DNA of 64,000 nucleotides from Girardia tigrina (Eukaryota). The notes under the pieces were generated by a model. That model had not been told where the DNA came from and searched no databases. It worked only from the letters and a program-made list of their open reading frames with translations. Below are positions 9,936 to 56,466 of the stretch, one piece after another (position 1 is the first letter of the stretch; each line of letters starts with the position of its first letter). The position numbers were made by a program, and so were the translations under genes. The stretch is from the NCBI GenBank assembly GCA_001938485.1, contig MQRK01212312.1, positions 1-64,000 on the forward strand, written 5' to 3'.

Positions 9936-11200
9936 TTGGGTTGACCAAAAAGTCATTGCGTTTTTTACTAAAATATTTATTATCAAAAAATGACATGGAT
10001 GCACAAATATTTTTACACGATATATATATCCATTATTTTCAATCACTTTCTTCCACCTTTCCGGTAGCTTCATTATTCCTGATTCATAAAAACCTTTGCC
10101 TTTGTCAGCAAAAAAGATGTCTAGGAACGATTTGATGTCATCATCACTGGCGAATGTTTTTTCTGTTTAAGGAATTCTGCAGTGATCTAAATAAGTGAAA
10201 ATCCGATGGGGTCAAGTCTGGAGAATACGGTGGGTGCGGCAAAACCTCCCAACCCAGTGATAATAGTTTCTGGTGAGTGGTCAAACTTGTATGCGGTCTT
10301 GCGTTATCATGCTGAATTACAACTCCTTTTCGATTTGCCCATTCAGGACGTTCCTGTTGAATTGAATGAGCCAATTTCTCCAGCTAACCACAATATCTGT
10401 CTGAATTGATGGTTTCATTCCTCGGAACGAATTCAAAAAGCACAATTCCTTTAAAATCCCATCAGACGAAAAACATAACCTTTTTTGGTGAATTACTGCT
10501 TTTGGGATCGTTTTGGCAAGCTCACCACGTTTTGTCCATGATCGTCGGTGTTCCACATTGTTGTTAACAATCCACTTTTCGTCACCCGTAATGAAGCGCT
10601 TCAAAAATGGATCACTTTGTTCTCAATTCAAAAGGGAATCGCAAATGTCTATACGTTTCACCAAATGAAATTCTTTCAGTTCATGTGGTAAACACATATC
10701 GAGTTTACTGGCAAATCCAAGTTTCTTTAAATGACTTCCAACACTTGATTTTGATATTTCCAGAGTCTCTGCAACTTCTCTTGTCGTCATATGTGGATTA
10801 GATTTGATCAGTGCTGTTATTTTGTCGCTATCAACTTCAACTGGTCGACCGGAGCGTGGTGCATGTTTCAGATGAAATTTTTCAGAACGAAATTTAGAAA
10901 ACCAGTATTGACACTGTCGAAGTTTTAAGTAGTCACTACCATATACAAAACATATTTTCTTATGAGCTTGCACAGCGGTTTTCCCTTTGCGAAAATAATG
11001 CAACAAAACATGACGAATATGCTCATTTTGATTTTCCATTTCGAATTGACGGTAAAGTAATAAATTAAAACAAAATCAATTAATATTTTGTATAAACAGT
11101 CTGAAAATTGAGGTTTCAGAATATATAATTGAATTTAAATTTTACCACATCGTTTTATATTTTCAAGCTTTTTATTTTCAATGACTTTTTGGCCAACCAA
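9936..11200 (-). mobile_element. Full-length but pseudogenised mariner (DD34D) transposon
   Basis: TIRs TTGGGTTGACCAAAAAGTCATTG / CAATGACTTTTTGGCCAACCAA with TA on both sides, ~1.27 kb. The broken transposase (11039 down to ~10020) retains an HTH region, PRSGRP, (W>C)LPHEL, TGDEKW, HDNARPH and YSPDLTPSDFHLF. Confidence 0.95.
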
Positions 11201-15470: not shown

Positions 15471-18400
15471 TGTGAGGAATATTTTAAATTTTGTATGTTG
15501 AGTTTAGTATTTAGAAATGTGTTTCTCCCATCCAGATGGAAAATTGATATTTTAGATGTTCACGATAAATAATTATTCGAGTATAATTTATATTTTAAAG
15601 TACAGCATAAGATATTTAAAAACATTAAAAATATTAAATCGTTTCAAATTTTAATAATAAAAAATTAAATAAAGTAAATAGCTTTTAACAAAGTTTTTAC
15701 ATAAAATCATTTTTTGAATAGAATTAATATGTAGATAAAATTATTACTAAAATTATAAAATTTGAACTTTAAAAATAAAATCTAAAAATAATGAAAAATT
15801 TGTTCGAATAATTATTTATTAAAAAACATTAACTAAAAGTTATCAATTTAGAACGATGTCAAATTACGAAAGCTTTACTGAGAGTTTTCCAAAAAACAAA
15901 TCTAATTGCATTGAAAATAAAAGTTCGAAAACCCATGTTGGTGTTCTTAATATGGCGACACACGACCACGTGATTCCGAACATCAGAGGTCCGGAGATTT
16001 TTGATGGATCTGAAACAAAGGTTGAGGCATTCATAACGAGCTTTAATGAAGATAATGGGATTTTCAGAGGAGAGGAAAATCTTATTAGCAACACAATATA
16101 TGACTCCGGATGTCATAATAAAATATGAAGCAGCGACAGGTGAAACATGTGAAGAGAAACTAAGATCCGCATTTTCAAAGGAAAAATCTATCCTGGATCT
16201 AATGAATGAACTGGTAGAAATGAGAATTGGATCCAGCGATCCAACAGTAATATTTAGAAAGGCTGACGAAATCATTGAAATGTTAATTGAGAAAAAGTTG
16301 GGTAAAAAGGAACTATCAAATTTGGTCTACGCTAATCTGATAGATGACGAGAACGTACAGAAAGAAATAGCTGTTAGAGGTGTCAAGAAATCTGAAGAGA
16401 TTGAAGACATTCAAACGAGAATGTTCGAATATGATAAAAAGAAAAAAATGCTCCTGTAGCGGCATATAACACGAAAAGAGAAAATGAATGGAGAACAGTG
16501 GAAAATAAAACAAGTACACCAAGACCACAGAACGAGAAATTCATAGAACAAGAAACAAGAAGAAATTTTAAAGTTCGAAAAATTACCTGTTGAGCATGCC
16601 ACGAAGAAGGGCATATTAGAAGAGAGTGTCCAAACGTGAAGTGTAGTCATTGTAATGGAAAAGGGCATTTAAGAACACAGTGTTATGAAAACCCTAATAG
16701 GTTTAGGGAGCGTGATCAATGGAAAAGGGATAATGGAAATAATCGATGGAATAACAGGCAAAATTACTCGAATCAACGGTATAGAGAACGGCCAACATAC
16801 ACGAATAGGAAATACCCAGTAGCAGAAGTGGACGAACTAGATGATGAATTATACATAAGAGAAGAATCTAGAAAAGGGGACTATTCTGAAGGAACGTATA
16901 GAAGAGAAGATGGTAAAAGACTGGAATCTCCCGTAGGTAACAGAAAATTCAGAAATGATCAGGGAAACGAGGACGCACGATCACAGGGAGAAGTGATCAC
17001 TGTGCTACAATAGGAACTCAATGTAGGTGTATGATTGATTGTATGTATGAATGTGTTTGTGATTGTATGTTTGATGATGTGTTTGAAAATATTCCTCTGG
17101 AGATGTGCAGATTAGATAATGAACCTGAAGGACACGATGAAATATGTGCTAATATGGATATAGAAAATGAGAAAAAAATTAAAAAGAATGCTGAAGATGT
17201 ATTGATATTACCGAAGTTTAACATAAATTATGAAGATTTGAAAGATAGACCAAGTATAGAGTTCCGAATAAAGAATAAAAATGTCAATTGCCTGTTAGAT
17301 ACCGGAGCTCGAGTCAACGTTATTAAAGCAGAGATAATTAAAGATATGAAAGATGTCAAGATCAAAGAAATTAAAAGATGAATACATTGTGCGAATGATT
17401 CAGAACTTATAAACTATGGTATTTATAAAAGTAACCCAAAGTTCAGATAAGGTTAACCTGAAGCTACTTTTATATGATATAATAAACGAAATAACAAATC
17501 CGGGAGTGGAAATGATGTTAATTACAAAGAAGAAAAACTATAACGAATAACACATACAATTCAATAACCGTATAACAATTCTTTTGTCTTTTAACTTGAA
17601 AGATGATGTCGGACTTGATGGTTATTCGTCGTTTTTTGAGATTGTCAGGATTGTCTTCTTGGTAGCGTTATTGCATGAGACGAATCTTTAAAAAAACGAT
17701 AAAGGACTTCAATTCTTCGAGAATTTCTTTGTCGAGTTCTTGGGACGTGAGTAACGATTTGTCATCGGTGGTGAGATGGAGAGAGAGTTGTTTGGTGTTG
17801 TTGGAGAGATGATTGAGGATGTTGATACAGTTGCAGTCGATGAGTTTTTGGTTTCAGCTTGGGAATGATTTAATAATAGAATCCACAAAAACTACTGTAT
17901 TTCATTAATTGATCAATATTTCATATTTATTATTTAATTTTTTATTTCTCAATCCAAATATTATTATTTAGCTTGAATTCCATAATAATGTACTTTTACA
18001 GTATTGTTCAACTTAAAGTGATAATTGAAAGAATGCAGAAAACAGTAGATTTCTTTGTGGTCAAAGATTAAGATCCAGAAATGATTGCATGAATGGATTT
18101 CTTGGACAAATTCAGGATTAAGTTAAAGAGAGAACCATCAAATACTAATGAGTTACTGGTAATACGAGACAATCCATCAGACGAGGATAGATTGAGGAGA
18201 ATAAAAGAGCTGTTAGAAAACAAAATTGACAACCAACTAATGGAACTTTTAACACGATTTAAATCAATATTTATGGCCGACAAATGGGATATTGGAAGGA
18301 CATCACTGACCAAACACAAGATCGAAACGCATGGAGAACCGGTTTTAGTGAAACCTTATCGACAACCAAAACATTTCGAGGAAAAACTGAACGATATTAT

Positions 18401-18697
18401 TCGAAATTATGAAGAAAACGATATTATAGAGAAATGCAGTTCACCGTGGAATTTCTCTTTAGTTTGTGTTTGGTTTTTTTGTATGTTGAGTTTAGTATTT
18501 GGAAATGTGTTTCTCCCACCCAGATGGAAAATTGATATTTTAGATGTTCACAATAAATAATTATGCGAGTATAATTTACATTTTAAAGTACAGCATAAGA
18601 TATGTAAAAACATTAAAAATATTAAATCGTTTCAAATTTTAATATTAAAAATTTAAATAAAGTAAATAACTTTTAACTAAGTTTGAATTAAATAAAT
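15471..18697 (+). mobile_element. Internally deleted Gypsy LTR retrotransposon (5' LTR, PBS, gag, protease, start of RT, partial 3' LTR)
   Basis: 5' LTR 15471-15952 followed by PBS-like TGGCGAC. Gag zinc knuckle CSHCNGKGHLRTQC, protease LLDTGA and RT start SSPWN follow. The sequence then jumps at ~18478 into a second copy of the LTR. Confidence 0.9.
17424..18000 (-). mobile_element. Solo LTR of a second family inserted in the Gypsy protease region
   Basis: 5-bp TSD GTATT (17419-17423 / 18001-18005). Minus-strand termini are TGTAAAAGTA...TACTTTTATA. Removing the insert restores the reading ..INYG-IVQLKV.. Confidence 0.8.
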
Positions 18698-37353: not shown

Positions 37354-37358
<5 letters not shown>

Positions 37359-37412
<54 letters not shown>

Positions 37413-37462
37413 NNNNNNNNNNNNNNNNNNNNNNNNNNNNNNNNNNNNNNNNNNNNNNNNNN

Positions 37463-37500
<38 letters not shown>
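37359..37500. repeat. (TA)n microsatellite spanning an assembly gap
   Basis: Directly visible, with an N-run inside. Confidence 0.95.
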
Positions 37501-37504
<4 letters not shown>

Positions 37505-37541
37505 AATAAAGAAAAAAACACCATTTTAAAAATTTTATTTT

Positions 37542-41488: not shown

Positions 41489-43270
41489 AGAGGAATCGCG
41501 ACGAAACTGTGTACACTGATTGCAGAAGTCTCACTTATAATCGCTGACGATCAAACTAAATGCTGATAGGTCGCGTTTAATAATTATTTATATTCACTTC
41601 GCAACGATTATTACAAATGGGTAAATAGTATTAATAATAATAGTAATATCTTCCTTCTCATTATCTCTTTTTATCTCTTTAATAGAGAGAATGACAAGCT
41701 CGTTCTTAGGAAGCAGGTGATGTTGAAGCTGATTCAGACTATTTCTTAGTTGTTCTATTGTTCTAATTGAAAATAGCCTGATTTCATATCAACGTGAGAA
41801 TCTCTTAAGTACGCTGACATGCCAGCATCGAGCTAACAGGCATCACAGACACACAGCCGCATTTATCCCCGCGACCCCCCCTCCCCGGCCACACACTCGC
41901 TCCTGCAGACAGTCTTCTGCAAATGTTGTGTATAATTGCTGCTTATTAATTCGCTGGAGGGCGGCAATAAAACCAAATTAATTTGTGAATTCGATCTGCT
42001 AGAGTTCCTTCGCCTCATCTAATATTTGATATAGGAGGCTTAATGAGATATAAGCATTTTTGCTCGTTTGTTGTAAATCTTTGTCCCAATAAATTTATAT
42101 ATTGGAGCTGGAAAAAAAAATTTTTAACCACTAAACAATTAACCGCATTGAAATATTAAACACGTTTCAGGACTCTGCCATTTATTAAATTGAGTAGGCT
42201 AATTATTTGAGATTATGTGGAGATAAATTAATTTTACCACGCAACTAAACTGCTGTAAGCGAGCGCAGCTGACTTCTCGATGTGATTCCTGTCGTCAACA
42301 ATCGCTAATGATTCCATAGTCTTACTGACTGCAAATATGAGAAAATCATTTATCTAGAATTACATTATAGGGAGAATGCACGATGCATTCGCTATCAGAA
42401 TTAATGTGGCTGAGAATAATTGAGGAATGATAATGGGTTTTAAATTACTAGAAATATACGATTGTCGATGCTCCGGTTGCATGCTCCATCATGTGAGTGT
42501 TAAACCTGTCGTCATTCTTCGCTAATGGGTCCGCTTTGTTCAGATATGTTCCTAGCTAATTGCTACAGTCTGTGGATGCTCAATAATTTTCAGTAACCAA
42601 TTCAATCCAATTACATAAAATAATCACTTTATTTTACCGATTATCAAAGGGAAAAAATAATGTATCTAAATGTTTGTCCATTATGGTTTTTTTAATATTA
42701 ATAGTGTTATTTAATTAGTATTCAAAACCGCTTTATCCAATGCTGTTTATTGAATCAATGAATATCTCGTGAAATGTTTCCCCGTCTTCTTTTTGTTCCG
42801 TCCTCGCAAGGATGCGATTCCTCATTATTCTGTCGGTACTCCCAATTTCGGGATCTATCGCCACTCGCCAGATTCATTCAACCAGAAGAGAATGAGTATT
42901 AATTATCCGCGTTGCGGAATTGAGTCACTTTTGGGGAATGTTTTCGATAAGTCATTAAATTTGAATATAAATACGATTAAAATACTCTCACGATACAGAA
43001 GGAAAAATATTTTTTTCGTCTAAAATCAGAAATTATATTTTAAAAATATAATGTTAAATGAATATAAATTATTATCTCTATGAAATCTGATCTTTGGGAT
43101 CAGTTTCTGACGAGCAGGTTCAACTGGACGTCTTATAATCTTATCCTGGCCATTGGGAGTACAAAAGAAACGAGCAACCTTTTTAAAAAATATTATTCAA
43201 TAAAATGAAACGCTTTAATACATTTTTTAGGAATAATAATAAATAAAAAATGCATAGAATTTTTCAGTCA

Positions 43271-44347
43271 TTAAGGGGAAAATGAGCATTCTGCCTACAA
43301 CCCCCCTGAGGGTAACCCGTTGCCATGGCAACATTTGCGGTTACCATAGCAACCGTCACGATCACCCTAGTAACGGTTACGGCTCACTTGGTAACGGTAA
43401 CCAAGGTCTTAGTTACCATAGCAACGGTAACCAAGGGGTGTTTTTCATTAGCAACGGATACAGTGATTCAAGGTTGTTGTAAAAATGGTAACAGTTACCG
43501 AATCCATATCAACAGTGACCCTTTCCTTAGCAACCGTAGAAAAAAGTGCTAATCGATCGCTGCATAGTGCATAGATGTTTTAACCGATACTTTAAAAGTG
43601 CTAATCGATAGTGCACATTGTGCCGCACATTTTTAATTACACATGTGCAAAAGTGCAAAAATCAATACATATAATTTTTAAAAACTAGTGTCAAAAATCG
43701 ATATCATGTGTTTGATGCTCATATGTTTGATTCTCTAACTAAATGTGCAATTAGAATTTTCATATATTGATTACTTTTGCCTATAATTAACATAATGTAC
43801 AAATTTACACAAAATGCACATCGATTTTAGGCCTAGGCAGAGGTACAAGAAAGCTGAATATCAAAAATGTGCTCATACACTTTAATAGTAATTCATATAC
43901 GTACATTCAGATTCCACATCTACATTTTCGAAAAGGTGCTGAAATATCCATTTTTTCGAACATTTCTGAAATTCTCAAAAAAGTGCTTAAAATCGGTGCA
44001 TAGTGCTTTTTTCGTATATACCTGAAACCCATATGTAATATGTATGTTGCTTGTCATCAAACAATACCTCATGAATCGTTTAATGTAGCCCAGCCTAGAC
44101 ATCAACAATCACAAGTACCATGGTTACCGTAACCAAGATACATAATTTTTTATATTATATGTAAAATCTACATTTATAAAACTCCTATCCTACTTAAAAC
44201 GTGCATAGACATGTAAAACGTGCCTAACATGTACATGATCTGCTAAAGTAGATGAGCCTAGACATCAAATATCATATCACCTTGGTTACCGTAACCATGT
44301 TACTATCTTCATGCATTTGTTATGCATCCATCATGTCAACGAGTTGC
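43271..44347 (+). repeat. Left TIR (~1.08 kb)
   Basis: Reverse complement of 50412-51340, e.g. GGGGAAAATG(A/G)GCATT and CACCTTGGTTACCGTAACCATGTTACTATCTTCATGCATTTG. Confidence 0.92.
43319..43425. promoter_or_regulatory. Array of RFX X-box-like palindromes in left TIR
   Basis: GTTGCCATGGCAAC (43319), GTTACCATAGCAAC (43340 and 43412), and degenerate units at 43361 and 43382. Confidence 0.6.
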
Positions 44348-44545
44348 ATTCATTATGTTAACGAAATTTGAATTTAAAATTTGAATTTTAATCAATATTT
44401 TAAATTTCTAATGAGACACCTGTCATTATTTCAAAATCCTGTTAAGAAAATGGTGAGTTTTTTTTTCAGTTCCGTTAAAAAATATTTTTTTTAAAATTCA
44501 AATTTATCCCAATACTACAAATACAATTTCTCTTCACAAGAGGCA

Positions 44546-47500
44546 ATGTACAAAACTAGTTTTGAAGAATTTTACAATGACTATAAACAACATGTAGTTC
44601 CTTCCACCAAATCGAAAAAGCATATATTCAAAGAAAATGTCGAAGATGTTTCAAGAGAAAATTCCTATGAAAATTCAACAATGTTCATTATACAGATGCT
44701 GCATGGCAAATGTTCACAATCCACAAATTTATCATGATACAATGCAGTGTTACTATGGATATGTGTTCAATAGATGTGAGTATTACATTTATCCAGTATG
44801 TCAAAATGCAAGTAGTGGTGACTATCATCAATTTTATGATAGCCACAAGAACCATTTGTGGGACTTTTCAATAAAGTCCAGGAAGACTATCTTCCAATTA
44901 TCAACGTACCAAGTTCTCGCATCACTAAATTTTTCGAATGTTCCAATTGAGAAGAATGTGTTAAATGTCCAAATTGAGAAGAATCTAACAAATACGATAA
45001 AAGTTCCCTTAAAACGTGTAAATGCTACAAATGTTCCAATGGAGATACATGTTTCAAATGCTGCCAAGGCTGCAAATATTCCATCAAAACGTGCAAATGA
45101 TACAAATATCATAAATGTTCCATAAAAAAGTTCAAGACAGGACCAATTCATAAAGCTTCATTGAATAAGAAGGTACGTTAATATGTTATCAAGGCTCCCC
45201 AGGCTAACCTAGACAGCAAGGTTTCAAGTCTCCACGAGTTTCTGGAATATTCCAAGAAGGAAACCATGGAGATTCTACAAGACAACATGTTTGATTTCAA
45301 GGCTATCAAAGTCAACCTTAAATTGGAGGCAACATTCACCAATGTTGATGATGATGTGTCAAATAGAGCCTTCAAGACCAAAAATAGACCAATGTTAGAA
45401 TCCGATGATATTTTGGAGTGGCTCAATGAAGAATATGCCAAGATAATGAAGGAAGCTGATGAGAGCAAAGAAAAGAAGAGTGGATGGACTCTTGCATACG
45501 TTAACCAATTGATAATTCATGTTCATAAATACTCCACAATGAGAGGCAGGTCCTACATACCGCTTCCTGAATGGATAGCTAATAAAAAGGCATGCGTCAA
45601 TGTTTACAATAATGACAGCATGTGCTTCAAGTATGCTTTGCTGTCAAAATTTGTTGAGGATCAGAACCATGCATCACTAGTATGGATATACAACAATCTG
45701 CAGCATCCATATAACTTCAACTGCATAAAATTCTCACCGAACCTGGAAGAAGTCACTAAATTTTGAAGCCACAACAATGTTTCAATCAATAACTTTGGTT
45801 TGGAAAATGAAACATTTTATCCCTTACTTGTATGTAAGGAAAAAATAGGAGATCATCTGGATTTGCTATTGCCAGATGATGGAGAAAAGAGGCATTTTAT
45901 ATGGATCAAAAACTTTGAGCGCCTTCTAAGATCCCAAATATCGAAACATCATGGAAGTATCGAGATTTGTAAACGATTCTTTACACATTTTAATGGAGAT
46001 GATGCGGCAATTAAGTTGGAAGAGCACAATGCTTATTACAATAACAATCATTGCATCAGAGTGGAATTATCAAAGGAAGATTATATCGAATTCAAAGAAT
46101 ATGAAAAGATGCAGAAAGTGCCCATTATCATATATTGTGACTTTGAAGCCATTCTAAGCCCAGTTAAAACATGCAATCCGGATCCATAACTTAGCAGTAC
46201 GACATCATACCAGTATCATGAGCTATCATCATATTGTATGTATGCATTTGGTATTGACAGTGAGGCATTCCTATACAGAGGGCCAGATACAGCAGAATAT
46301 TTTATGAAACGTATGGATAGTTATGCCCACAGAATTGAAGACATGTTGCAGCAACACAAGTTCAACATGATAATTACATGGCAAGAAAAGTGTGGATGGA
46401 GAAAGGCAACACAATGCTACTTGTGTGAAAAACCATTCACAAATGACAATCACAAAGTCAAAGACCATTGTCATTTTACTGGAAAATATCGAGGAGCAGC
46501 ATGTAATAACTGCAATTTGCGATATAAAACATCTACAAATGTTCCTGTTGTATTCCACAATCTTAGTGGATATAACTCCCATTTCATAATAAGAGAACTG
46601 GAAAAATCAGTGGGTATATATACGTTATTCTAAATAGTAAGGAAAAATACATCACATTTACCAAGCATGTGGGTAGAATTAAGCTACGATTCATCGATAG
46701 TTTCCGATTCATATCATCATCGCTGGACAGCCTTGTCAAGAATATTCCTGCAGCTGAACTGAAGGAAACTAAAAAGTTCTTCCCAAATTCATTTGACTTA
46801 GTCAAAAGGAAAGGAGTATTTCCTTATAACTATATAAGATCATGGAGATCGCTGGATGAAACAATATTGCCAGCAAAAGAGGCATTTTACAACAAGCTTA
46901 ATGACACCGACATTAGTGATACTGATGCACAAAATATCTGGCAAGCTTTCAAATGCCAAACACTTGGGAGATATAGTGATGTATACCTCCAAACAGATGT
47001 GCTGCTTCTTACGGATGTTTTTGAGAGCTTTCGGGATGTGACACTTAAGAGCCACAAGTTGGATCCAACTCATTTCTTTACATCACCAAGTATGAGTTGG
47101 GCAGCAATGCTGAAATATACAGGCATAAGGATTCAAATCCTGAAAGATTATGACATGATCCTCATGCTGGAACGGTATGGTGAGGCAAACAATAATACAT
47201 GAAAAATTATGATCCATCCAAGGCATCCTCCTACATAACATTCTTGGATGCTAATAATTTATATGGATGGGCAATGAGTGCTCCATTACCATGACAATTT
47301 CAAATGGGTGGATCAACCTGAAGACATCACGATAGAAAAACTGAACCCTAATGGAGATGTGGGCTACATATTGGATGTGGTAGTTGAATATCCAAAATCC
47401 ATCCATACAAGACATGAGTAGCTGCCTTTTCTGCCTGAGAGCAAATGTGCTCCTAAAGGAAAACATAAGAAGCTGCTCTGTCACTTAGAAAATAAACAAA

Positions 47501-48434
47501 AATATGTAGCCCATTACATCAATGTCCAACAAGCTATAAGGAAATGTCTCATAATCACAAAGATCCATTGGGTTCTTCAGTTTAGTTATTAAAAATGGCT
47601 TAAGCCATATATTGACTTTAACACCAATCTGATGACCAATGCCAAAAACGACTTTGAAAAGGATCAGTTCAAACTGTACAATAACAGCGTTTTTGGCAAA
47701 ATGATGGAGAATATCCGCAACAGAATCAACATGGAACTGGTGTGTGATTTGAAGCGAGCAAAGAAGCTCATTGCCAAATCAAACTTCCACAGTAGTATTA
47801 TATACACTGAAAATCTTGTGAGTATACATATGCTGAAGACATCCCTGGAGTTTGATAAGCCGATATGTGTGGGGATGTCAATCCTTGATCTATCCAAGGC
47901 CTTGATGTACGACTTCCACTATGACATCATGGTCCTTAAATTCCGGGATTTACAGCTAATGTATATGGATACTGATAGCTTTGTCTATCAGATTCATACA
48001 GAAGATCTGTTTGCGGAGTTTTTCAAATGGTTCAACATATGGATATCTCAGACTATTCAAAGGACCATCCAAATTATTAAACATCAAATAAAAAGGTCCT
48101 TGGAAAGTTTAAGGATGAAGTCAATTGTCAAATCATCTCTAGATTCCTGGCACTACGGTCTAAGATGTATGTCATTGATGTGAATGGAAAGATCAAAAAG
48201 ATGGCAAAGGTAGTTCAACGGGCAATGTTAGCAAACCAAATCGGATTCCATAATTATATGAGAGTGCTGCGGGAACAAATCAATATAATTTCTGAAATGC
48301 GAAGGATCCAATCAAGAGGACATCAAGTCTCCACAGTAATGATGCGGAAGAAAATCCTAGACTGGTTCGACGATAAACGACATATTTTGACAGATGGAAT
48401 AAGTATATTACCTCACGGATATTATTTCTTGTGA
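44546..48434 (+). pseudogene. Protein-primed family B DNA polymerase (Polinton/adintovirus type), fragmented by stops and frameshifts
   Basis: ExoI IYCDFEA; EndoVII-like CYLC..DHCHFTGKYRGAACNNCN; ExoII FHNLSGYNSH; FIDSFRF; RKGVFPY; ExoIII YLQTDVLLL; motif A LDANNLYGWAM; motif B KLYNNSVFGK; motif C YMDTDS; GKFKDE. The 44546-45125 part may be its N-terminus or a separate ORF. Confidence 0.93.
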
Positions 48435-48769
48435 ATGATCCACTTGTATATATTGTACATATGTAAATAAATAAATGTTCTTTATAATCTTGTTACGTTT
48501 TAATTCAATTAAAGGTTAATCAAATAATCGTTTCAGAAAGTAATATGTAAAATATTTATTAACGTGATGATAATAATTCAAGTTAATCTATACTATACCA
48601 AAATGCAACAATTCTCCATTCATTTCTAAATTCAGCTTTACTATCTCTAATTCATGTTTTATTTGTGTTTCTATATCCATTTTAACAAATGTATTAATCT
48701 ATTTTATATAAAATCAAGACTAAATTATTACAAGATTTATTAACACAACAATACAACTTGCATCAACAA

Positions 48770-49498
48770 TTAAATACAACGAATTTCTGACAATTTCCAT
48801 ATTTGATTATTTTCTCCATTTCTTTCTTTTCTACCTTGTATGCATATTTTGATAAATGCCATAGTATAATTAGACAAGTCCATTGTTGGTTTTTCATGAC
48901 CCATAAAATCTCTGAATTTTAACCCATCATCTGATCGAAAATATTGTTCTCGATGTTCACTCAGCTTTCCATCTGGTCTTGTTCCAACTTCTTGTAGGTA
49001 AATATTCAAAAGATCATAAATGCGATCACTAATGTCCTTTACATGGTAGCTAAATTTGCTCTTTCTAACATATACCGGATCCCTCAATTTAATTGATTTC
49101 GGATATTTCAACAAGTTAATTTGATATCATCTATATGCTGTTGAAGTAGAAACCCATGGTGAGGAAGATTTTTGTGGAGCATATCTTTGTTTTGGTTGAA
49201 AATAACTAACTTGTTTAGTCTGATTAACCAGGGCTTCAACAATTGGCACTTGAATATCCTTGGCTGTTTGAGTGTCTAGGCTAGCCCGGCTAGCCAGGGC
49301 TACTATTGGTTGTCCAACTAGCCTAAGCAGCCTGATTAGTCTAGGCCGCCCTACTGGTCTGACTGGTTCGACTAGATTAGGTTGATCAGCATTTATCTCT
49401 TCAGTTAATTGGTTAGGTCTATTAATTGTCTCATCATCAATCTTCTTTTCTTCAGTTACCTGGTTAAGTTCATTAAAGGTTTTAAACTTCAACTTCAT
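48770..49498 (-). pseudogene. Unknown ~240-aa ORF with AT-hook-like motif (one internal stop)
   Basis: ORFs 49127..49498 and 48770..49114 are in the same frame, separated by a single TGA. Contains RPVGRPR. No fold recognised. Confidence 0.55.
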
Positions 49499-49760
49499 TT
49501 TAGCAGGAGCAACTTGATTTGTCTAACGGATTTTGAAATAATGACAAAATGTCTTGATGTTGCGATATCTTATAATGTTTATTATATTTATTTTATTTGA
49601 TACATTAAAACAAAACATATCATAATAATATTATTTATATATTACTTTTAATATAATAAAACAAACACTTGTTATTAATTTGTTTTAATGAATCACTATT
49701 AATAAATAGACACAAGGCGGGAATTCGAATTATGATGGATACAGTGACATTCATTTTTAA

Positions 49761-50381
49761 CAAATACTGCGTAATATTAATTATAAAGGATTTACTCAAG
49801 ATTGTCTGAAAGACCTCCATTTTGGTACTAACCCGTACCAATGTGTTTTATACTTGCTAGAGTATACCATTATACTCTTCCGAAACGGAAAATGTCGAAT
49901 AACGGGCTGTAAACTACCAATTGATCCATCCACTTTACCATTCAATCTCACCAATGTCAGTATACAATTTATTACAGTGACTCGTGATTATGGTGATCCC
50001 ATAAATATCAATGCTTTGAAAATGACTACTCCGAATCATTATGAACCTGAAACGTTTCCTTCTATGAGATTAACTTGTTTGAATCCAATATGTATAAATG
50101 TTTCTCGTTCTGGGAAAATTGTAATCACCGGTTTGAGAGATTTAAACTATAAGGATTTTGTTACACGTGTTTTGACTATATTTTGTTTACAATGTTTATT
50201 ACGTAAGTTGTGTTTCAAATATATTGTTGTATCTTCTTCATTCAAAATCTTGTGTATATTAAACATTGTACATATATGTTACAGCTGTACATGCTATTTA
50301 AATAAATGTTTTGTTGAAAATAGTCATGTTATACATGTATTCATTCAAAACCTTGTAAACAACAACTTTTATTATAAATAA
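49761..50381 (+). pseudogene. Divergent TATA-box-binding protein (TBP)-like ORF
   Basis: Two TBP-repeat signatures: TIILFRNGKCRITG, and HYEPETFPSMRL...INVSRSGKIVITG (cf. LIFxSGKxVxTG and YEPELFP). The frame is open from 49761; the likely ATG at 49732/49735 needs a frameshift. Similarity ends near 50180. Confidence 0.82.
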
Positions 50382-50411
50382 TAATGATATATACTATAAA
50401 ATGGTTACTAA

Positions 50412-51340
50412 GCAATATGTTGACATGATGGATGCATAGCAAATGCATGAAGATAGTAACATGGTTACGGTAACCAAGGTGTTTTGATAGTTGATGTCTA
50501 GGCTCATCTACTTTAGCAGATCATATACATGTTAGGTATAATGTCTATGCACGTTTTAAGTACAATAGGAGTTTGATAAATGTAGATTTTACATATAATA
50601 TAAAAAATTATGTATCTTGGTTACGGTAACCGTCGTACTTGTGATTGATGTGAAATCTGAATATACGTATATGGGTTACTATTAAAGTGTATGAGCACAT
50701 TTTTGATATTTTTCTTTTTTGTACCTCTGCTTAGGCCTAAAATCGATGTACATTTTGTGTAAATTTGCACATTATGTTAATTATAGGCAAAAGTAATCAA
50801 TATATGCAAATTCTAATTACACATTTAGTAGAGAATCAAAATATGCATCAAACACATAATATTGATTTTTGACACTAGTACTTTTAAAAAATGATATGTA
50901 TTAATTTTTGCACTTTTGCACATGTGCAACTTAAAAAGCAATATGCTAGCACCTTAAAGATGTGCGACACAACGTGCACTATCGATTAGCACTTTTAAAG
51001 TGTCGATTAGAGCATCTATGCACTGTGCAGCAGTCGATTAGCACTTTTTTCTACGGTTGCTAAGGAAAGGGTCACTGTTTTTATGGATATGGTAACCGTT
51101 ACCATTTTTACAACAGCTTTGAATCACTGTAACCGTTGCAAATGAAAAACGTCCATTCGTTACCGTTGCTATGGTAACTAAGACTTTGATTACTGTTACC
51201 AAGTGTGCCGTAACCGTTACTAGGGTTTTCGCGACCGTTGCTAAGGTGATCTGAACCGTTACCATGGTAATCGGAACAGTTGCCATGGCAGCGGGCTACC
51301 CCTGGGGCGGTTGTGGACACAATGCCCATTTTCCCCATAC
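50412..51340 (-). repeat. Right TIR (~0.93 kb)
   Basis: Inverted copy of the left TIR. It lacks ~43921-44103 and has one extra 21-bp unit plus a ~22-bp insertion. Confidence 0.92.
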
Positions 51341-51948
51341 TTCAGTCAATTAATGTTTAATCGAAACTTTGATCTTACACAATTTACAAATGTTTTCATA
51401 GGAAAATTTGTTTGAAACAATTTTATTTAACATTATTTTGTCTTATGATAAAAAGCGAATAAAAATAAACACTATGTTCCCTCTGTGTACCGAAACACAA
51501 TGCACTGCATGAAGCCTCGTCTGATCCAAACAGTCGTAGAGCTCGTCCCGTCTGTTGTATGAAGTCATTGTACTGTAGTGTTCGGATCGAAGGCCTCAAC
51601 TCATTGGGGATTGTTAGGACTGAGTCAGCGAATTTAACCAACAAGGATCATTTTCGAATGGTATATGCGGTCGATTGCGAGGAAACCACTAGAATCTCTT
51701 TGTCATTCGTTAGGGCAGCAACGGTTTGAGCCGTTCGTTACAACTTGTCATGATTTTTCTTCAAATTCTCGTACATATTTACAATAATCCTTATTTCAAC
51801 AGATAAACACATCAGCATTAGAAATAATAAGAAAAAAGATGAACACTCTGACGTATTTTTCGTTTTTCAAAAACGTGTTTTTGTACATGCGTTCAAAGAA
51901 CTACATTTTATATTGTTATTTTTTATTTTTTTCTTTGTTTTGCATGTA

Positions 51949-54900
51949 CAGTGCGTTCAAAAAGTCTGTTCGCACCCATAAAAATCATCACTTATACAAA
52001 TGTCCTAAGTAAAAAGACGATGAAGTGGAAGTAAATATTATATTTACAAATAAAAATGTTATTTTTAATATTTTGTGTGGTATCCTTTCATCTTGATGAT
52101 TGAAGACACTCTTCGCGGCATCGAATCGACAAGTCGGCGATATAAAGAACTTAATATGTTGTACCATAACTTTTGTATTTCTATCCACATTTTTTCTGAA
52201 TTCAAAGTATCCATATTATTTATTTTTCTCTTTATAATACCCAACAAATTCTCAATTGGATTTACATCTGGTGAGTTGGCAGGCCAATCAAGAATATTTA
52301 TCTTCTTTGTTTTCAAAAAAGACACTGTTGATGCTGATCAATGGCAAGGCGCATTGTCTTGCTGAAATATAAAATTTAGAAGAGGGAATACCAAGCATTG
52401 CCCTGTAATGTCTATGTTATTGACAATTAGGTCTTGATAGTTCTTCGAATTTAAATTCCCGTTTATCCGTTTTAAGATACCAACACCAAATCTGGAGAAA
52501 GATCTCCATACATGAACTTGGGCACCGTGTTGGAGGACCTTCTTAGTACAAATGTCACTAAGCCTTTCATTGTCAAACCTTTTAACGATTTCGCTACGAG
52601 TGTGGCTATACGTGCGGAACATAGATTCATCGCTAAAAACTACATTCGACCACTTATCAATGTCCCAATTTTGTTTATCCCGAGTCCATTCAACTCTTCT
52701 TTTTCGTTGCTTTCCATTCAATAAAGGCTTGCAAACAGCATAATGACTTTTTTAAGCCGTACTTTATCAAAATTCTATTCACTATACTTCGTGATACATT
52801 TTTTTTCAGTGAGCAAAAGTGCCCGGTTTTTACAAAAATAAATTCGCCGCATACATCAACCCAAAGGAATCATCAGCACCGGCCCTGGATTCCACAGGGG
52901 TTCTTTCGCTAATGGCCTCCTCCCGCACCCTTCAATTGGGTGATCGTTTCCGCCGGACCCGACACTTCGCTTATTGCACTAGTAACTCATCATTGGAGGT
53001 GGGTTCCTCCTCCCATGATGAGTTATTTACATCTTCTGATGAATCTCCAATCCTAGATCTAAAAAGTCTTGGGAGTAATTCATCATCGGATGAGTCATCT
53101 TGAGTTTGATCCTCAATCAGAAAAGTTCCCCCATGTTGCACTCTTTCTCTATGACTGAAAGATTGTATGAGTGCATCCAGGGCGGCTGGATCAAAGTCTT
53201 CGACGTCCTCAGGGACAATATGTGCGTAATCGGCTTCTTCCATCATTAACATGCTGTCTTGAGGTCCGTCGTAGCATTCCACATTTATTTTGCTGACTCT
53301 TTGTATCCCGCTTGGGACTATTCCATCCCATTGATAAGACCATTGTGCGGCTGAATACTTGATGTTGGATATTGAGCATCCAATCGCAATTTTTCTTATC
53401 ACCTTCTGCGGGATCTTCAGCGTTGTTAAGATATCCGTGCTCCTCTTTGGCCACGTCCCAAGGCATCCTACTTGGAGAGTAAACACTGTCACTGTTGTTT
53501 CGGGCATTGCCGCCTTACAAGCATTGGCAAGAATCTCATAATGGTCGAGATTCTTTTCATTGCTGTGTTTGATGTTTTTCACTGTGTCAAATGGGCACTT
53601 AACATCAATTAGGTATAGGATCTTTGATCGTGGGACGAATACCTGTAAGTCGACTCGGTCCTGTGATGGGGCATATTGGCACTCAGTATTTATATCTACC
53701 TTGCAATCCAAATACTGAGTGATTTGCTCTCCAATACACTACAGGACCGAGTTATGCCTATAGTTTCTGAAATCCCCACTATAATTACAGTCGGTCAGCA
53801 CGTGAGCCAATGTTTCTTTATCGTGAGGGCATCGGCGACAATGACCTCCATTCTTGGTGATTCCTGGTCGGAAGTTGACTGGCACCGTGTATGTAAATGC
53901 TTTGTGGTAAAAATACCACTCAGCATAGTTGAGCTCCCCCCCATAGGCAGCGCTGTGAAAGCTAATCGTCGATTGCAGGCTTCTTGAAAATCGACCAGCA
54001 CTGTTTTGGACATTCCATTTGTGCGTCCAAGATTTTTTCACTAGTCTTCTTAGTGTCTTGGACACACTGGATTTTAGGAGGGGGGTGAGGAGTATGTTTT
54101 CATGCGTGTCGTCCCGGAAAGTTTCATATTCACCATTGGGTAGTCTCCTCTTCCACACCAGTGATTGGTGAAGGTGTAGACAAATGCCTCTCTCATTCTG
54201 CACCAGACTAGCTGAGATCTGGTGCAGTTCTTTGATTTTGTGGATGGCAAATTTGATCTNNNNNNNNNNNNNNNNNNNNNNNNNNNNNNNNNNNNNNNNN
54301 NNNNNNNNNNNNNNNNNNNNNNNNNNNNNNNNNNNNNNNNNNNNNNNNNNNNNNNTCGCTCCACGTTGAAGGGAGAAGACTGCAGCATCCATCGTTGTCG
54401 CATCACTACACGCAATCATTTGGAAACTATGGGCCAGTGATTGTATCAGGTACTCATCAAGTAGCGATTTGATACCGACTCCCCCATTTTCCCTTGGCGT
54501 GTAGAGATACGCATTCGATGCGTTTTTCTGCAGTCCCAACACTTTGTGGTAAAAATACCACTCAGCATAGTTGAGCTCCCCTCCATAGGCAGCGCTGTGA
54601 AAGCTAATCGTCGATTGCAGGCTTCTTGAAAATCGACCAGCACTGTTTTGGACATTCCATTTGTGCGTCCAAGATTTTTTCACTAGTCTTCTTAGTCTTC
54701 ATCCAGTGTTCCATATGGAATGTAGAAGATCCTGAATGAGAAAACAAGTTTGGAATGTAGATAGACCATGTAAGCGTGCAATTTCTGCCAGGGAAACAGT
54801 ATAGATTCTGTAATCTTAATTGTTTCNNNNNNNNNNNNNNNNNNNNNNNNTACTGGTGCTAACTTAATATTTTCTGAAAAGTGACCTCCCAAATATACAA

Positions 54901-56045
54901 CGAATTCACCCTCCGTAATTTCGGGGATAGCGTTTCCATAGATTTGGATCCTATTGTTTGGATTATGTGGGATAGCTATTCGTGAACATTTGGAAGGTCT
55001 GAATTTAATACCTAAAATGTTGGTAATGTCGACCGCCTTATTGACCATTTTTTGCATATGATCCTGATTATCAGCCAGCAACACAAGGTCATCAGCATAG
55101 GCCAAGCAGCTCACACGGTGATTGGCTATCAACATACCGCCATAAGACTGTTGGTCCAATTCCAATAGGACAGGGTTTATAGCAATGTTGAATAGCAGCA
55201 TTGATAGTGGGCATCCTTGAGTGACTCCCACCAAAATCGGAATTTGTTTGGTCACCGTGTTGTCGCATTTGTATGCCGATGAGCAGTCCCTGTATAGCTG
55301 TCGTATCAGGTCACACGAGTCTGCTCCTACACCCATTCTTCCTAGCAATTTAAGGATGATTTCCACCGACACTGAGCCAAATGCGTCAGCATTGTCTAGC
55401 ATTGTCGCGTGGAATTCGGCTCCTTTTAATTGATAGTAATATTTATCTAGGATGACCCGGATGACAAAGTTGTGTTCAGCACAGCCATCATGAGGACCTA
55501 GACTTTTCTGGAGTGGGTGTAAGAGGTCATTTTCCACAATCCACTTGTTTAGTTGGTCTCTTAAAAGTATAGCCAGCTGCATTGAAAGCTCCTGTTATTT
55601 TATTTATCGACATGCGCCTATTTTTCAAGCATATACGGCGAATAATTCTTTCAGAATGTTTTGGTAATTTTGAAGGTCGTCCACTACGTTTTTTATCTTC
55701 ATATGTACCTAATGTCTTGAACTTATGTACATTTTTTTGAATGCCACGCTTTGAAACAATAATACCATGTCTAACCTTCATAATTTCTTGTATCCGACCC
55801 GTTGAATGACCCTCGTTCATTAATTCTACAATAATAATCCTAACCCTTATATGTATATTTCGAGTTGTCATTGAATCTAAAAGATAAACATTTAATTAAT
55901 TCATCTTAAAATAAGATGTTCTTGATATTTCAATTTTAAATTTACTAAAATTATTTAAATTAAAGCATTTAAACAAATTAAAAAAATTAATAAATAGCAT
56001 AAATCAAAATTTCAATGGGTGCGAACAGACTTTTGAAACGCACTG
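51949..56045 (-). mobile_element. Tc1 (DD34E-type) transposon interrupted by a non-LTR retrotransposon
   Basis: 31-bp TIRs CAGTGCGTT..AAAGTCTGTTCGCACCCAT with TA TSD. The transposase N-terminus (55871-55581, RSGRPSKL) resumes at ~52819 with VFSDES, FQQDNAPCH and WPANSPDVNPIENL. Confidence 0.95.
52823..55580 (-). mobile_element. 5'-truncated non-LTR retrotransposon with restriction-like endonuclease (R2 group, NeSL/R4-like)
   Basis: RT motifs LDNADAFGSV, GVTQGCPLS, LAYADDLV, YLG and PRENGGVGI; zinc knuckle CRRC..ETLAHVLTDC; RHNSV; RLE motif RVDL...LIDVKCP. Confidence 0.92.
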
Positions 56046-56466
56046 TAACTAAAATTTGATTTATTAAAGTGTATCTTTATCTCTAAAAAATCAGAGCACC
56101 ACACCATCTACATGACTTTTCAAGTTTTCTAAAACCTTTTTAATCTTTTGAGTACAAAAATATAGATTTATTGATGTTTCGGAATTCCAAAATTAAAATC
56201 TTAATTTATAATTGTGTATTCTTATTTATATTTCAATGTTCTTCTTTCTTATCCTGAAGACAGTCTTTCGATTCAGATTCAAATCGTTAATTGTTATTCG
56301 AAATCTTTAAAGACTCACTTCGTTTTTATTTTATCTAAGAATGGTTAGAAACTTAAGAAATTTTATTTATAACATAATTTATTCTTATTTCAATTCACCA
56401 GTGTAATTCACAATATTCAAAGAAACACAGTTTTTAATTTAACACTTAATTTATATTTCCCTGTGC

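Follow-up and report, generated by a model that had tools for sequence, protein, structure and literature searches.

A tandem array of candidate RFX sites in the terminal inverted repeats of an internally deleted Polinton-type element

Binding sites for host factors in the terminal repeats of DNA viruses are known already, RFX at the inverted terminal repeats (ITRs) of adeno-associated virus (AAV) included. The adenovirus ITR carries an auxiliary origin, with NFI and Oct-1 sites within the first ~50 bp, next to the protein-primed origin. For RFX, the accessible text of PMC5760533 describes binding of RFX1 and RFX3 to the AAV ITR D sequence, with an effect on expression, and binding of RFX1 to inverted-repeat sites in the enhancers of hepatitis B virus (HBV) and of polyomavirus. 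The X-box that RFX recognizes is given as GTNRCC N0-3 RGYAAC, and natural X-boxes often combine one strong RGYAAC half with one degenerate half (accessible sections of bioRxiv 2022.11.11.515474 and PMC3414849). The monomer site is GTTRCY, RFX binding either as a monomer or as a dimer (bioRxiv 2022.11.11.515474, same sections). Mavericks, or Polintons, have terminal inverted repeats (TIRs), a 6-bp target-site duplication (TSD) and end motifs as their hallmarks; in vertebrates the TIRs measure 46-1,447 bp, the TSD is 6 bp and intact elements are 12.7-24.6 kb long (PMC8097293, in the part available). The open-access literature yielded no report of RFX sites or of transcription factor-site arrays in Polinton TIRs, and where Polintons and RFX were paired the RFX passage concerned host genes. 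To our knowledge, how Polintons/Mavericks are activated and by what route they reach the germline are open questions. With RFX and Ovo/Myb as the candidates to read it, a short, defined array would make these questions testable.

The element examined here lies in a 64,000-nucleotide stretch of a Girardia tigrina contig, referred to below as the window. It occupies 43270..51341 (8,072 bp) and was recognized as Polinton/adintovirus-type from its TIRs, its 6-bp TSD and the remnants of a gene for a protein-primed family B DNA polymerase (pPolB). The TSD, TCAGTC, is exact on both sides (43264..43269 and 51342..51347, plus strand), and a perfect match at a single given offset would arise by chance with a probability of 1.8e-4. 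On the strength of this exact TSD, these bounds were preferred to a pair of ends at GGGG and a 16-17-bp duplication. The left TIR (43270..44347, plus strand) is 1,078 bp long with the tip ATTAAGGGG, and the right TIR (50412..51341, minus strand) is 930 bp long with a tip that reads inward 5'-AGTATGGGG. A segment of 186 bp of the left TIR (43920-44105) is missing from the right one, and 80 of the 882 aligned columns differ between the two, an identity of ~91%. The element is similar to Polintons/Mavericks (Alpha-type adintoviruses) insofar as it has an animal-Polinton-type pPolB, a 6-bp TSD and long TIRs whose lengths fall within 46-1,447 bp. It differs in its length, 8 kb versus the 12.7-24.6 kb of intact vertebrate elements, in lacking ATPase, capsid and protease genes and in having a scrap of an integrase at most. 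Its right tip starts with an unrepeated AGT and its left tip with ATTAA; the end motifs (AGT)2 and (AG)3, which neither tip carries, are those described for vertebrate elements.

The polymerase gene (45182..48434, plus strand; Endonuclease_7 and DNA_pol_B_2) is nearly full length and broken by stops and frameshifts. Its named relatives, ~60% identical to it, belong to spiders, a scorpion and Nematostella. A Cys-rich, loosely repeated stretch at 44900-45180, upstream of the polymerase, had no match in Pfam or by BLAST. A weak, possible rve integrase scrap lies at 48595..48759 (plus strand), where integrases of three relatives gave tblastn E values of 0.014-0.019; a profile built from 15 relatives found no rve integrase in this copy. 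At 48785..49135, on the minus strand, is a gene similar to single-stranded DNA-binding proteins (SSBs) of the T7 gp2.5/Enc34 type with an OB fold (profile E 5e-11), a family present in 19 of 80 related loci, which are the best 80 of 122 confirmed metagenome loci carrying a TBP-like gene. For a family member from one of these relatives, L038, a structural model was made (pLDDT 92), and a fold search with it returned the Enc34 SSB (Z 8.4, rmsd 2.8, 103 residues aligned) and T7 gp2.5 (Z 8.0, rmsd 2.9, 105 aligned). These Z scores are near the level that the tool rates as middling, and the three SSB-type rows rank at the top. For the piece in this copy, the ESM Atlas gave no usable match and a sequence search of the PDB nothing below E 0.4. 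As modeled, the small gene is predicted to encode an SSB fold rather than a winged helix. At 49761..50381, on the plus strand, is a short TBP-like gene (PF00352, E 1.6e-10, match at 49767-50180). Its family is broad, with 267 representatives at E<=1e-10, metagenomic and linked to Polinton genes; in the 10 clusters examined all members came from ENA, JGI or Logan.

Among the relatives that carry the TBP-like gene, four long loci (L034, L038, L079 and L089) encode pPolB, an rve integrase and an ATPase, together with ORFs that we take to be capsid genes from their size, order and features, Pfam giving no match for these. Searches of the present copy by tblastn and with profiles found no ATPase, capsid or protease. 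Because the packaging ATPase, capsid and protease are absent here yet present in relatives, the element is, on its gene content, an internally deleted Polinton/adintovirus derivative and not an intact member. With its packaging genes missing and its polymerase broken, this copy is a fossil, and any function belonged to its active parents. TBP-like genes have also been noted in the Polinton-like elements known as MELD viruses (available text of PMC8502044 and bioRxiv 697771), a likeness to the present element; unlike it, MELD viruses are listed among elements of non-animal datasets, and in that same text of PMC8502044 TIR motifs are not mentioned for them. Viral contigs offered few relatives: none of 19 candidates proved related for the pPolB piece, none of 49 for TBP-like alignment A1, one of 19, weakly, for A2 (L107), and none of 106 for the capsid alignment. 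In or beside related elements we also saw genes for a ubiquitin-conjugating enzyme, a leucine-rich-repeat protein and RING-finger proteins (L034:222-719, L057:1918-3327, L079:13312-13893).

Each TIR contains an array of short units spanning approximately bases 50-270 from its tip. The left array (43319..43541, plus strand) has nine units, starting at 43319, 43340, 43361, 43382, 43412, 43442, 43479, 43500 and 43521; the right array (51049..51292, minus strand) has ten, one 21-bp unit more. The unit reads GTNRCC-NT-RGYAAC-N-GT-NAC with a degenerate 5' half, and T-RGYAAC-N-GT is the part common to nearly all units. A first-pass annotation of this DNA had described 21-bp-periodic X-box palindromes in both TIRs, and every unit and 14-mer that it quoted is where it placed them, its right-hand numbers being the low ends of the 14-mers. 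Its estimate of ~50 bp from each tip is also borne out, as the first unit begins 49 bases in, at base 50, in both TIRs. The array it reported is real but was drawn too short, since four further units lie inward of it (43442, 43479, 43500 and 43521), with the further 14-mers on the right ending at 51148, 51111, 51090 and 51069. The 21-bp period likewise holds inside an outer and an inner block but not throughout, the steps being 21, 21, 21, (21), 30, 30, 37, 21 and 21; the recruitment in phase that had been proposed is not supported over the whole array, as the steps of 30, 30 and 37 bp speak against it. The description of the array as palindromes fits three of the nine left units and one of the ten right units, which match GTNRCC-NN-RGYAAC exactly, and is overstated for the rest; with at most one mismatch the numbers are 4/9 and 4/10.

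When units were scored against the published IUPAC consensus rather than an RFX weight matrix, the X-box GTNRCC N0-3 RGYAAC was exact in 4/19 units and within one mismatch in 8/19. The exact ones are GTTGCCATGGCAAC at 43319..43332, beginning at base 50 from the tip; GTTACCATAGCAAC at 43340..43353 and again at 43412..43425 (both plus strand); and the counterpart of the latter at 51165..51178 (minus strand), inside which none of 40 listed copy differences falls. The strong half-site RGYAAC is present in 16 of the 19 units. The T of column 8 and the AAC are found in all 19, G16 and T17, two and three bases past the AAC, in 18 each, and the two C's of columns 5-6 in 15 each. Variation in the strong half is confined to R/Y in 18/19 units at each position, and mean pairwise identity among units is 0.80/0.75 for the 3' half, 0.49/0.45 for the 5' half and 0.54/0.55 for the tail. 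A scan with GTNRCCATGGYAAC allowing two mismatches gave 15 matches, all in the two TIRs (shuffle mean 1.86; 0/100 shuffles reach 15), and RGYAAC on both strands was found 15 times on the left and 11 on the right, as against ~1 in shuffles (0/300 reach either); these motif counts are inflated, because of tandem amplification and because the TIR is present twice, and the 19 units are not independent events. No exact X-box occurs in the remaining 55.9 kb of the window. The array had no Rfam match better than E 0.9 and no unusual single-strand fold (z -1.26). Immediately inward, the left TIR holds a second repeated word, AAAAGTGC (43542..43993, plus strand), with copies at 43542, 43594, 43649 and 43979.

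From the motif content we judge it somewhat likelier to be right than wrong that the array in these Polinton-type TIRs acts in cis as a cluster of host transcription-factor sites, enhancer-like and perhaps composite, with RFX as its main reader. AAV2, a linear DNA virus, likewise has an RFX-type site in its inverted terminal repeat, in the D sequence (PMC5760533, accessible text), and for AAV an effect on expression has been shown. AAV2 differs in being a parvovirus with hairpin priming and one degenerate site per ITR, while the present element, an integrating dsDNA element with protein priming, has some ten candidate units, several of them exact X-boxes. The EF-C/EP sites of HBV and polyomavirus are similarly inverted-repeat RFX1 sites in viral enhancers, but these are single and internal and do not form tandem terminal arrays. 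With the adenovirus ITR the element would share host-factor sites adjoining a protein-primed origin, candidate sites in the present case; unlike the adenovirus sites, the array runs from base 50 to ~270 and is more enhancer-like. If RFX binds, terminal repeats that employ RFX would be found beyond AAV, in a virus lineage that integrates and is protein-primed; if it does not, the array is a subterminal repeat of one decayed element family.

Under this RFX reading, a 21-bp unit would have multiplied in tandem, and RGYAAC, its strong half, would have been retained since RFX binds there, with RFX dimers on the complete X-boxes and monomers on the half-sites. Bound RFX might then have an enhancer role, for which the polymerase gene, reading inward from the left TIR, is the most plausible target, or, alternatively, might keep the ends open for the integrase and polymerase; both roles are less certain than the binding itself. 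A tie to ciliated cells or the male germline, which the first-pass annotation had suggested, is not supported. A role in transcription is a real if less than even possibility, and one in replication or end handling is on the unlikely side. Transcription is favored over initiation because the array starts at base 50, past the position of the adenovirus auxiliary origin. The conserved N-G-T tail and palindromes farther in may contribute Ovo/Myb-type sites. The reader would be a host protein: no RFX_DNA_binding or Pox_D5 domain was found in the 13 ORFs of the window (9 in the element), in three read-through frames or in 66 ORFs of relatives, these 66 representing 368, X-containing ORFs and singletons shorter than 130 aa having been dropped.

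To compare copies of the family, contigs of four runs were aligned over 50760-51420: X1 (organism A), X2, X3 (organism B) and X8 (organism C, perhaps RNA but giving no sign of expression), so that the TIR is present under three organism labels. A 699-bp contig of X1 carries the tip and right flank with 0 differences at depth 135, and X2 spans the right flank with a few differences. The contigs matching the TIR number 32,464 in X1, 26,863 in X2, 529 in X3 and 350 in X8; summed depth is 10^5-10^7 over most of the TIR, a figure that is not a copy number. The tens of thousands of organism A contigs on the TIR suggest that the family is very large or has many derivatives consisting of the TIR only. 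Joints that step back by one unit or by two are a sign that copies differ in their number of units. In the right array, 15 differences are among the 40 of 109 rows listed, and six of them fall in informative X-box columns. All six of these listed differences turn a misfit here into a fit elsewhere, and none runs the opposite way. Five of the improving bases have 51-100% of the depth in all four runs and the sixth 41-100% in three runs; the 41% share of the sixth is in X1, at a place where units may slip register. A loose end in X3 (organism B) carries a near-complete X-box. Conservation of the motif across copies, which the first-pass annotation had named as a check, is thus upheld as a family trait, without this being proof of selection.

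Comparison of the left and right TIRs of this copy alone gives no sign of constraint, since the array diverges more than the inner TIR (26/223 versus 43/610) and 3' halves are hardly closer than 5' halves (3/42 versus 5/42 differences). One unit has an identical damaged 5' half in both TIRs, so this loss was tolerated.

An alternative that we hold to be unlikely makes the units iterons, with a role in origin recognition, end pairing or packaging, whose binding protein full-length family members would encode (a C2H2 finger, a KilA-N protein, a D5-type winged helix or the polymerase N-terminus). The array lies beside a protein-primed origin, in uniform orientation and partly at two-turn spacing, as iterons might. 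Relatives encode C2H2 proteins (a cluster in 10 loci) and KilA-N proteins, an N-terminal C2H2-like pattern is found in 12 of 87 long pPolB relatives, and this copy has its Cys-rich stretch upstream of pPolB, although that stretch has no Pfam match. Viral D5-type helicase tails can share the RFX-domain fold (PMC10516667 and PMC2777425, in the portions available), yet neither a D5/SF3 helicase nor an RFX-like domain was present among the 66 relative ORFs. An element-encoded binder would also make the close fit to the host consensus, degenerate positions included, a coincidence.

The first-pass annotation had named RFX alone as the host reader, and this is not supported, as the unit core also fits the Ovo and A-MYB motifs. 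In the available text of PMC11410370 the Ovo motifs are given as the core TAACNGT, the SELEX motif AGTAACNGT and the derivative TTACSGTAA, and that of bioRxiv 2024.04.23.590802 describes CCGTTA as common to OVOL2 and A-MYB, in ovary and testis. The units could therefore be mainly germline sites of the Ovo/OVOL or A-MYB type (TAACNGT/CNGTTA), the X-box appearance being a by-product of overlapping GYAAC words, which seems to us slightly more unlikely than the iterons. Columns 9-17 read RGYAACNGT and overlay AGTAACNGT and TAACNGT, and the G16 and T17 kept in 18/19 units each are not demanded by the X-box consensus. TAACNGT occurs 5 and 7 times in the two arrays (shuffle mean 0.38; 0/500 reach this), and a relaxed YAACNGT is present in 16/19 units, equal to RGYAAC. 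The strict core, however, is found on either strand in 8/19 units only, and the perfect 14-bp palindromes and the CC at columns 5-6 are left unexplained. Of the three listed differences of other copies in Ovo columns, none gains fit and two lose it. The motif was, moreover, chosen after the sequence had been seen, and its AAC is common to the X-box. Likeness to the Ovo/OVOL2 and A-MYB motifs is thus in the TAACNGT/CNGTTA and TTACSGTAA words of the array and inner TIR; unlike these, the germline motifs have been described at host promoters and piRNA clusters, and the strict match here is limited to 8/19 units. An ORF in one related locus, L099, had a weak Myb_Rap1 match (E 0.012), below the cut-off.

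The Ovo derivative motif also bears on sites farther inside the TIRs, where GTAACC/GGTTAC words had been taken as more X-box half-sites. They are not X-boxes: the palindrome GGTTACCGTAACC, at 44122..44134 and 44284..44296 in the left TIR and 50463..50475 and 50619..50631 in the right, matches TTACSGTAA, a motif with two occurrences in each inner TIR and none in the rest of the window. This restriction of TTACSGTAA to four inner sites speaks for Ovo, but the second left site lies within a 162-bp-spaced duplicate of the first, and the two sites per TIR amount to one duplicated event. RFX would account for the 14-bp palindromes and the CC as well as for the direction in which copies vary, and Ovo/Myb for the tail and the inner sites. 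It is conceivable, with the same low probability as the Ovo/A-MYB reading by itself, that the TIR is a composite germline/ciliogenesis enhancer in which RFX X-boxes are overlapped by Ovo/A-MYB sites and joined by Ovo-type palindromes farther in. Such an element would read the germline factor code of the piRNA pathway and work with its own TBP-like protein, and the family would have spread clustered RFX sites that could rewire or titrate the host RFX program. The spread of clustered sites through the genome is proposed in view of the great abundance of related TIR sequence in the host; if RFX binds, so abundant a family would supply RFX sites on a large scale and in mobile form.

Least probable is a neutral minisatellite without a binding function: slippage would have multiplied a 21-bp unit that contained an X-box-like word, and replication would have kept the TIRs and the copies alike. 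The variable unit number, the faster divergence of the array than of the inner TIR between TIRs and the lack of a special single-strand fold (z -1.26) would allow this, but columns 1-7 and 15-21 vary strongly while T, A, A and C are kept in 19/19 units, the degenerate positions vary mostly within R/Y, and the core is unchanged in units that follow the 30- and 37-bp steps.

No comparable array was found in the 80 related loci, which reach at most 6 half-sites per 250 bp and do not demonstrably extend to the TIR tip. The closest locus, L027, is 81-83% identical over part of the TIR, stops before the array and is unaligned over the inner palindromes. In viral contigs an exact 20-mer and a two-unit pattern each gave 0 matches. 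A looser three-unit pattern matched 26 loci and was rejected, as 23 of these have a frame free of stops across the match and 3 have one stop, which we read as 7-residue coding repeats. In the relatives, TRGYAAC occurs 46 times in 82.7 kb of non-coding DNA versus 82 times in 202.7 kb of coding DNA, a slight enrichment that is too little for support. One related locus has an exact X-box (L080:1339). Five others have non-coding tandem repeats with a period of ~50-120 bp, each with TAGTAACA (L041:1111-1360, L044:9-165, L045:5045-5164, L031:4430-4510 and L054:7135-7436). In L031 and L045, TGACGTCA, which we take to be CRE-like, lies ~10 bp upstream of TAGTAACA.

The surrounding window contains other mobile elements. 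A Tc1-like element at 51947-56047 has 49-bp inverted ends and a DDE_3 piece, and a non-LTR retrotransposon remnant (52971-55594) is nested within it; a 155-bp duplication beside runs of N in the Tc1-like element may be an assembly artifact. Elsewhere, at 10623-11075, 181-651, 18093-18560 and 37358-37517, are an ORF, retrotransposon-like pieces and a long (TA)n run, of which the ORF and pieces are presumably mariner-like and LTR-retrotransposon-like.
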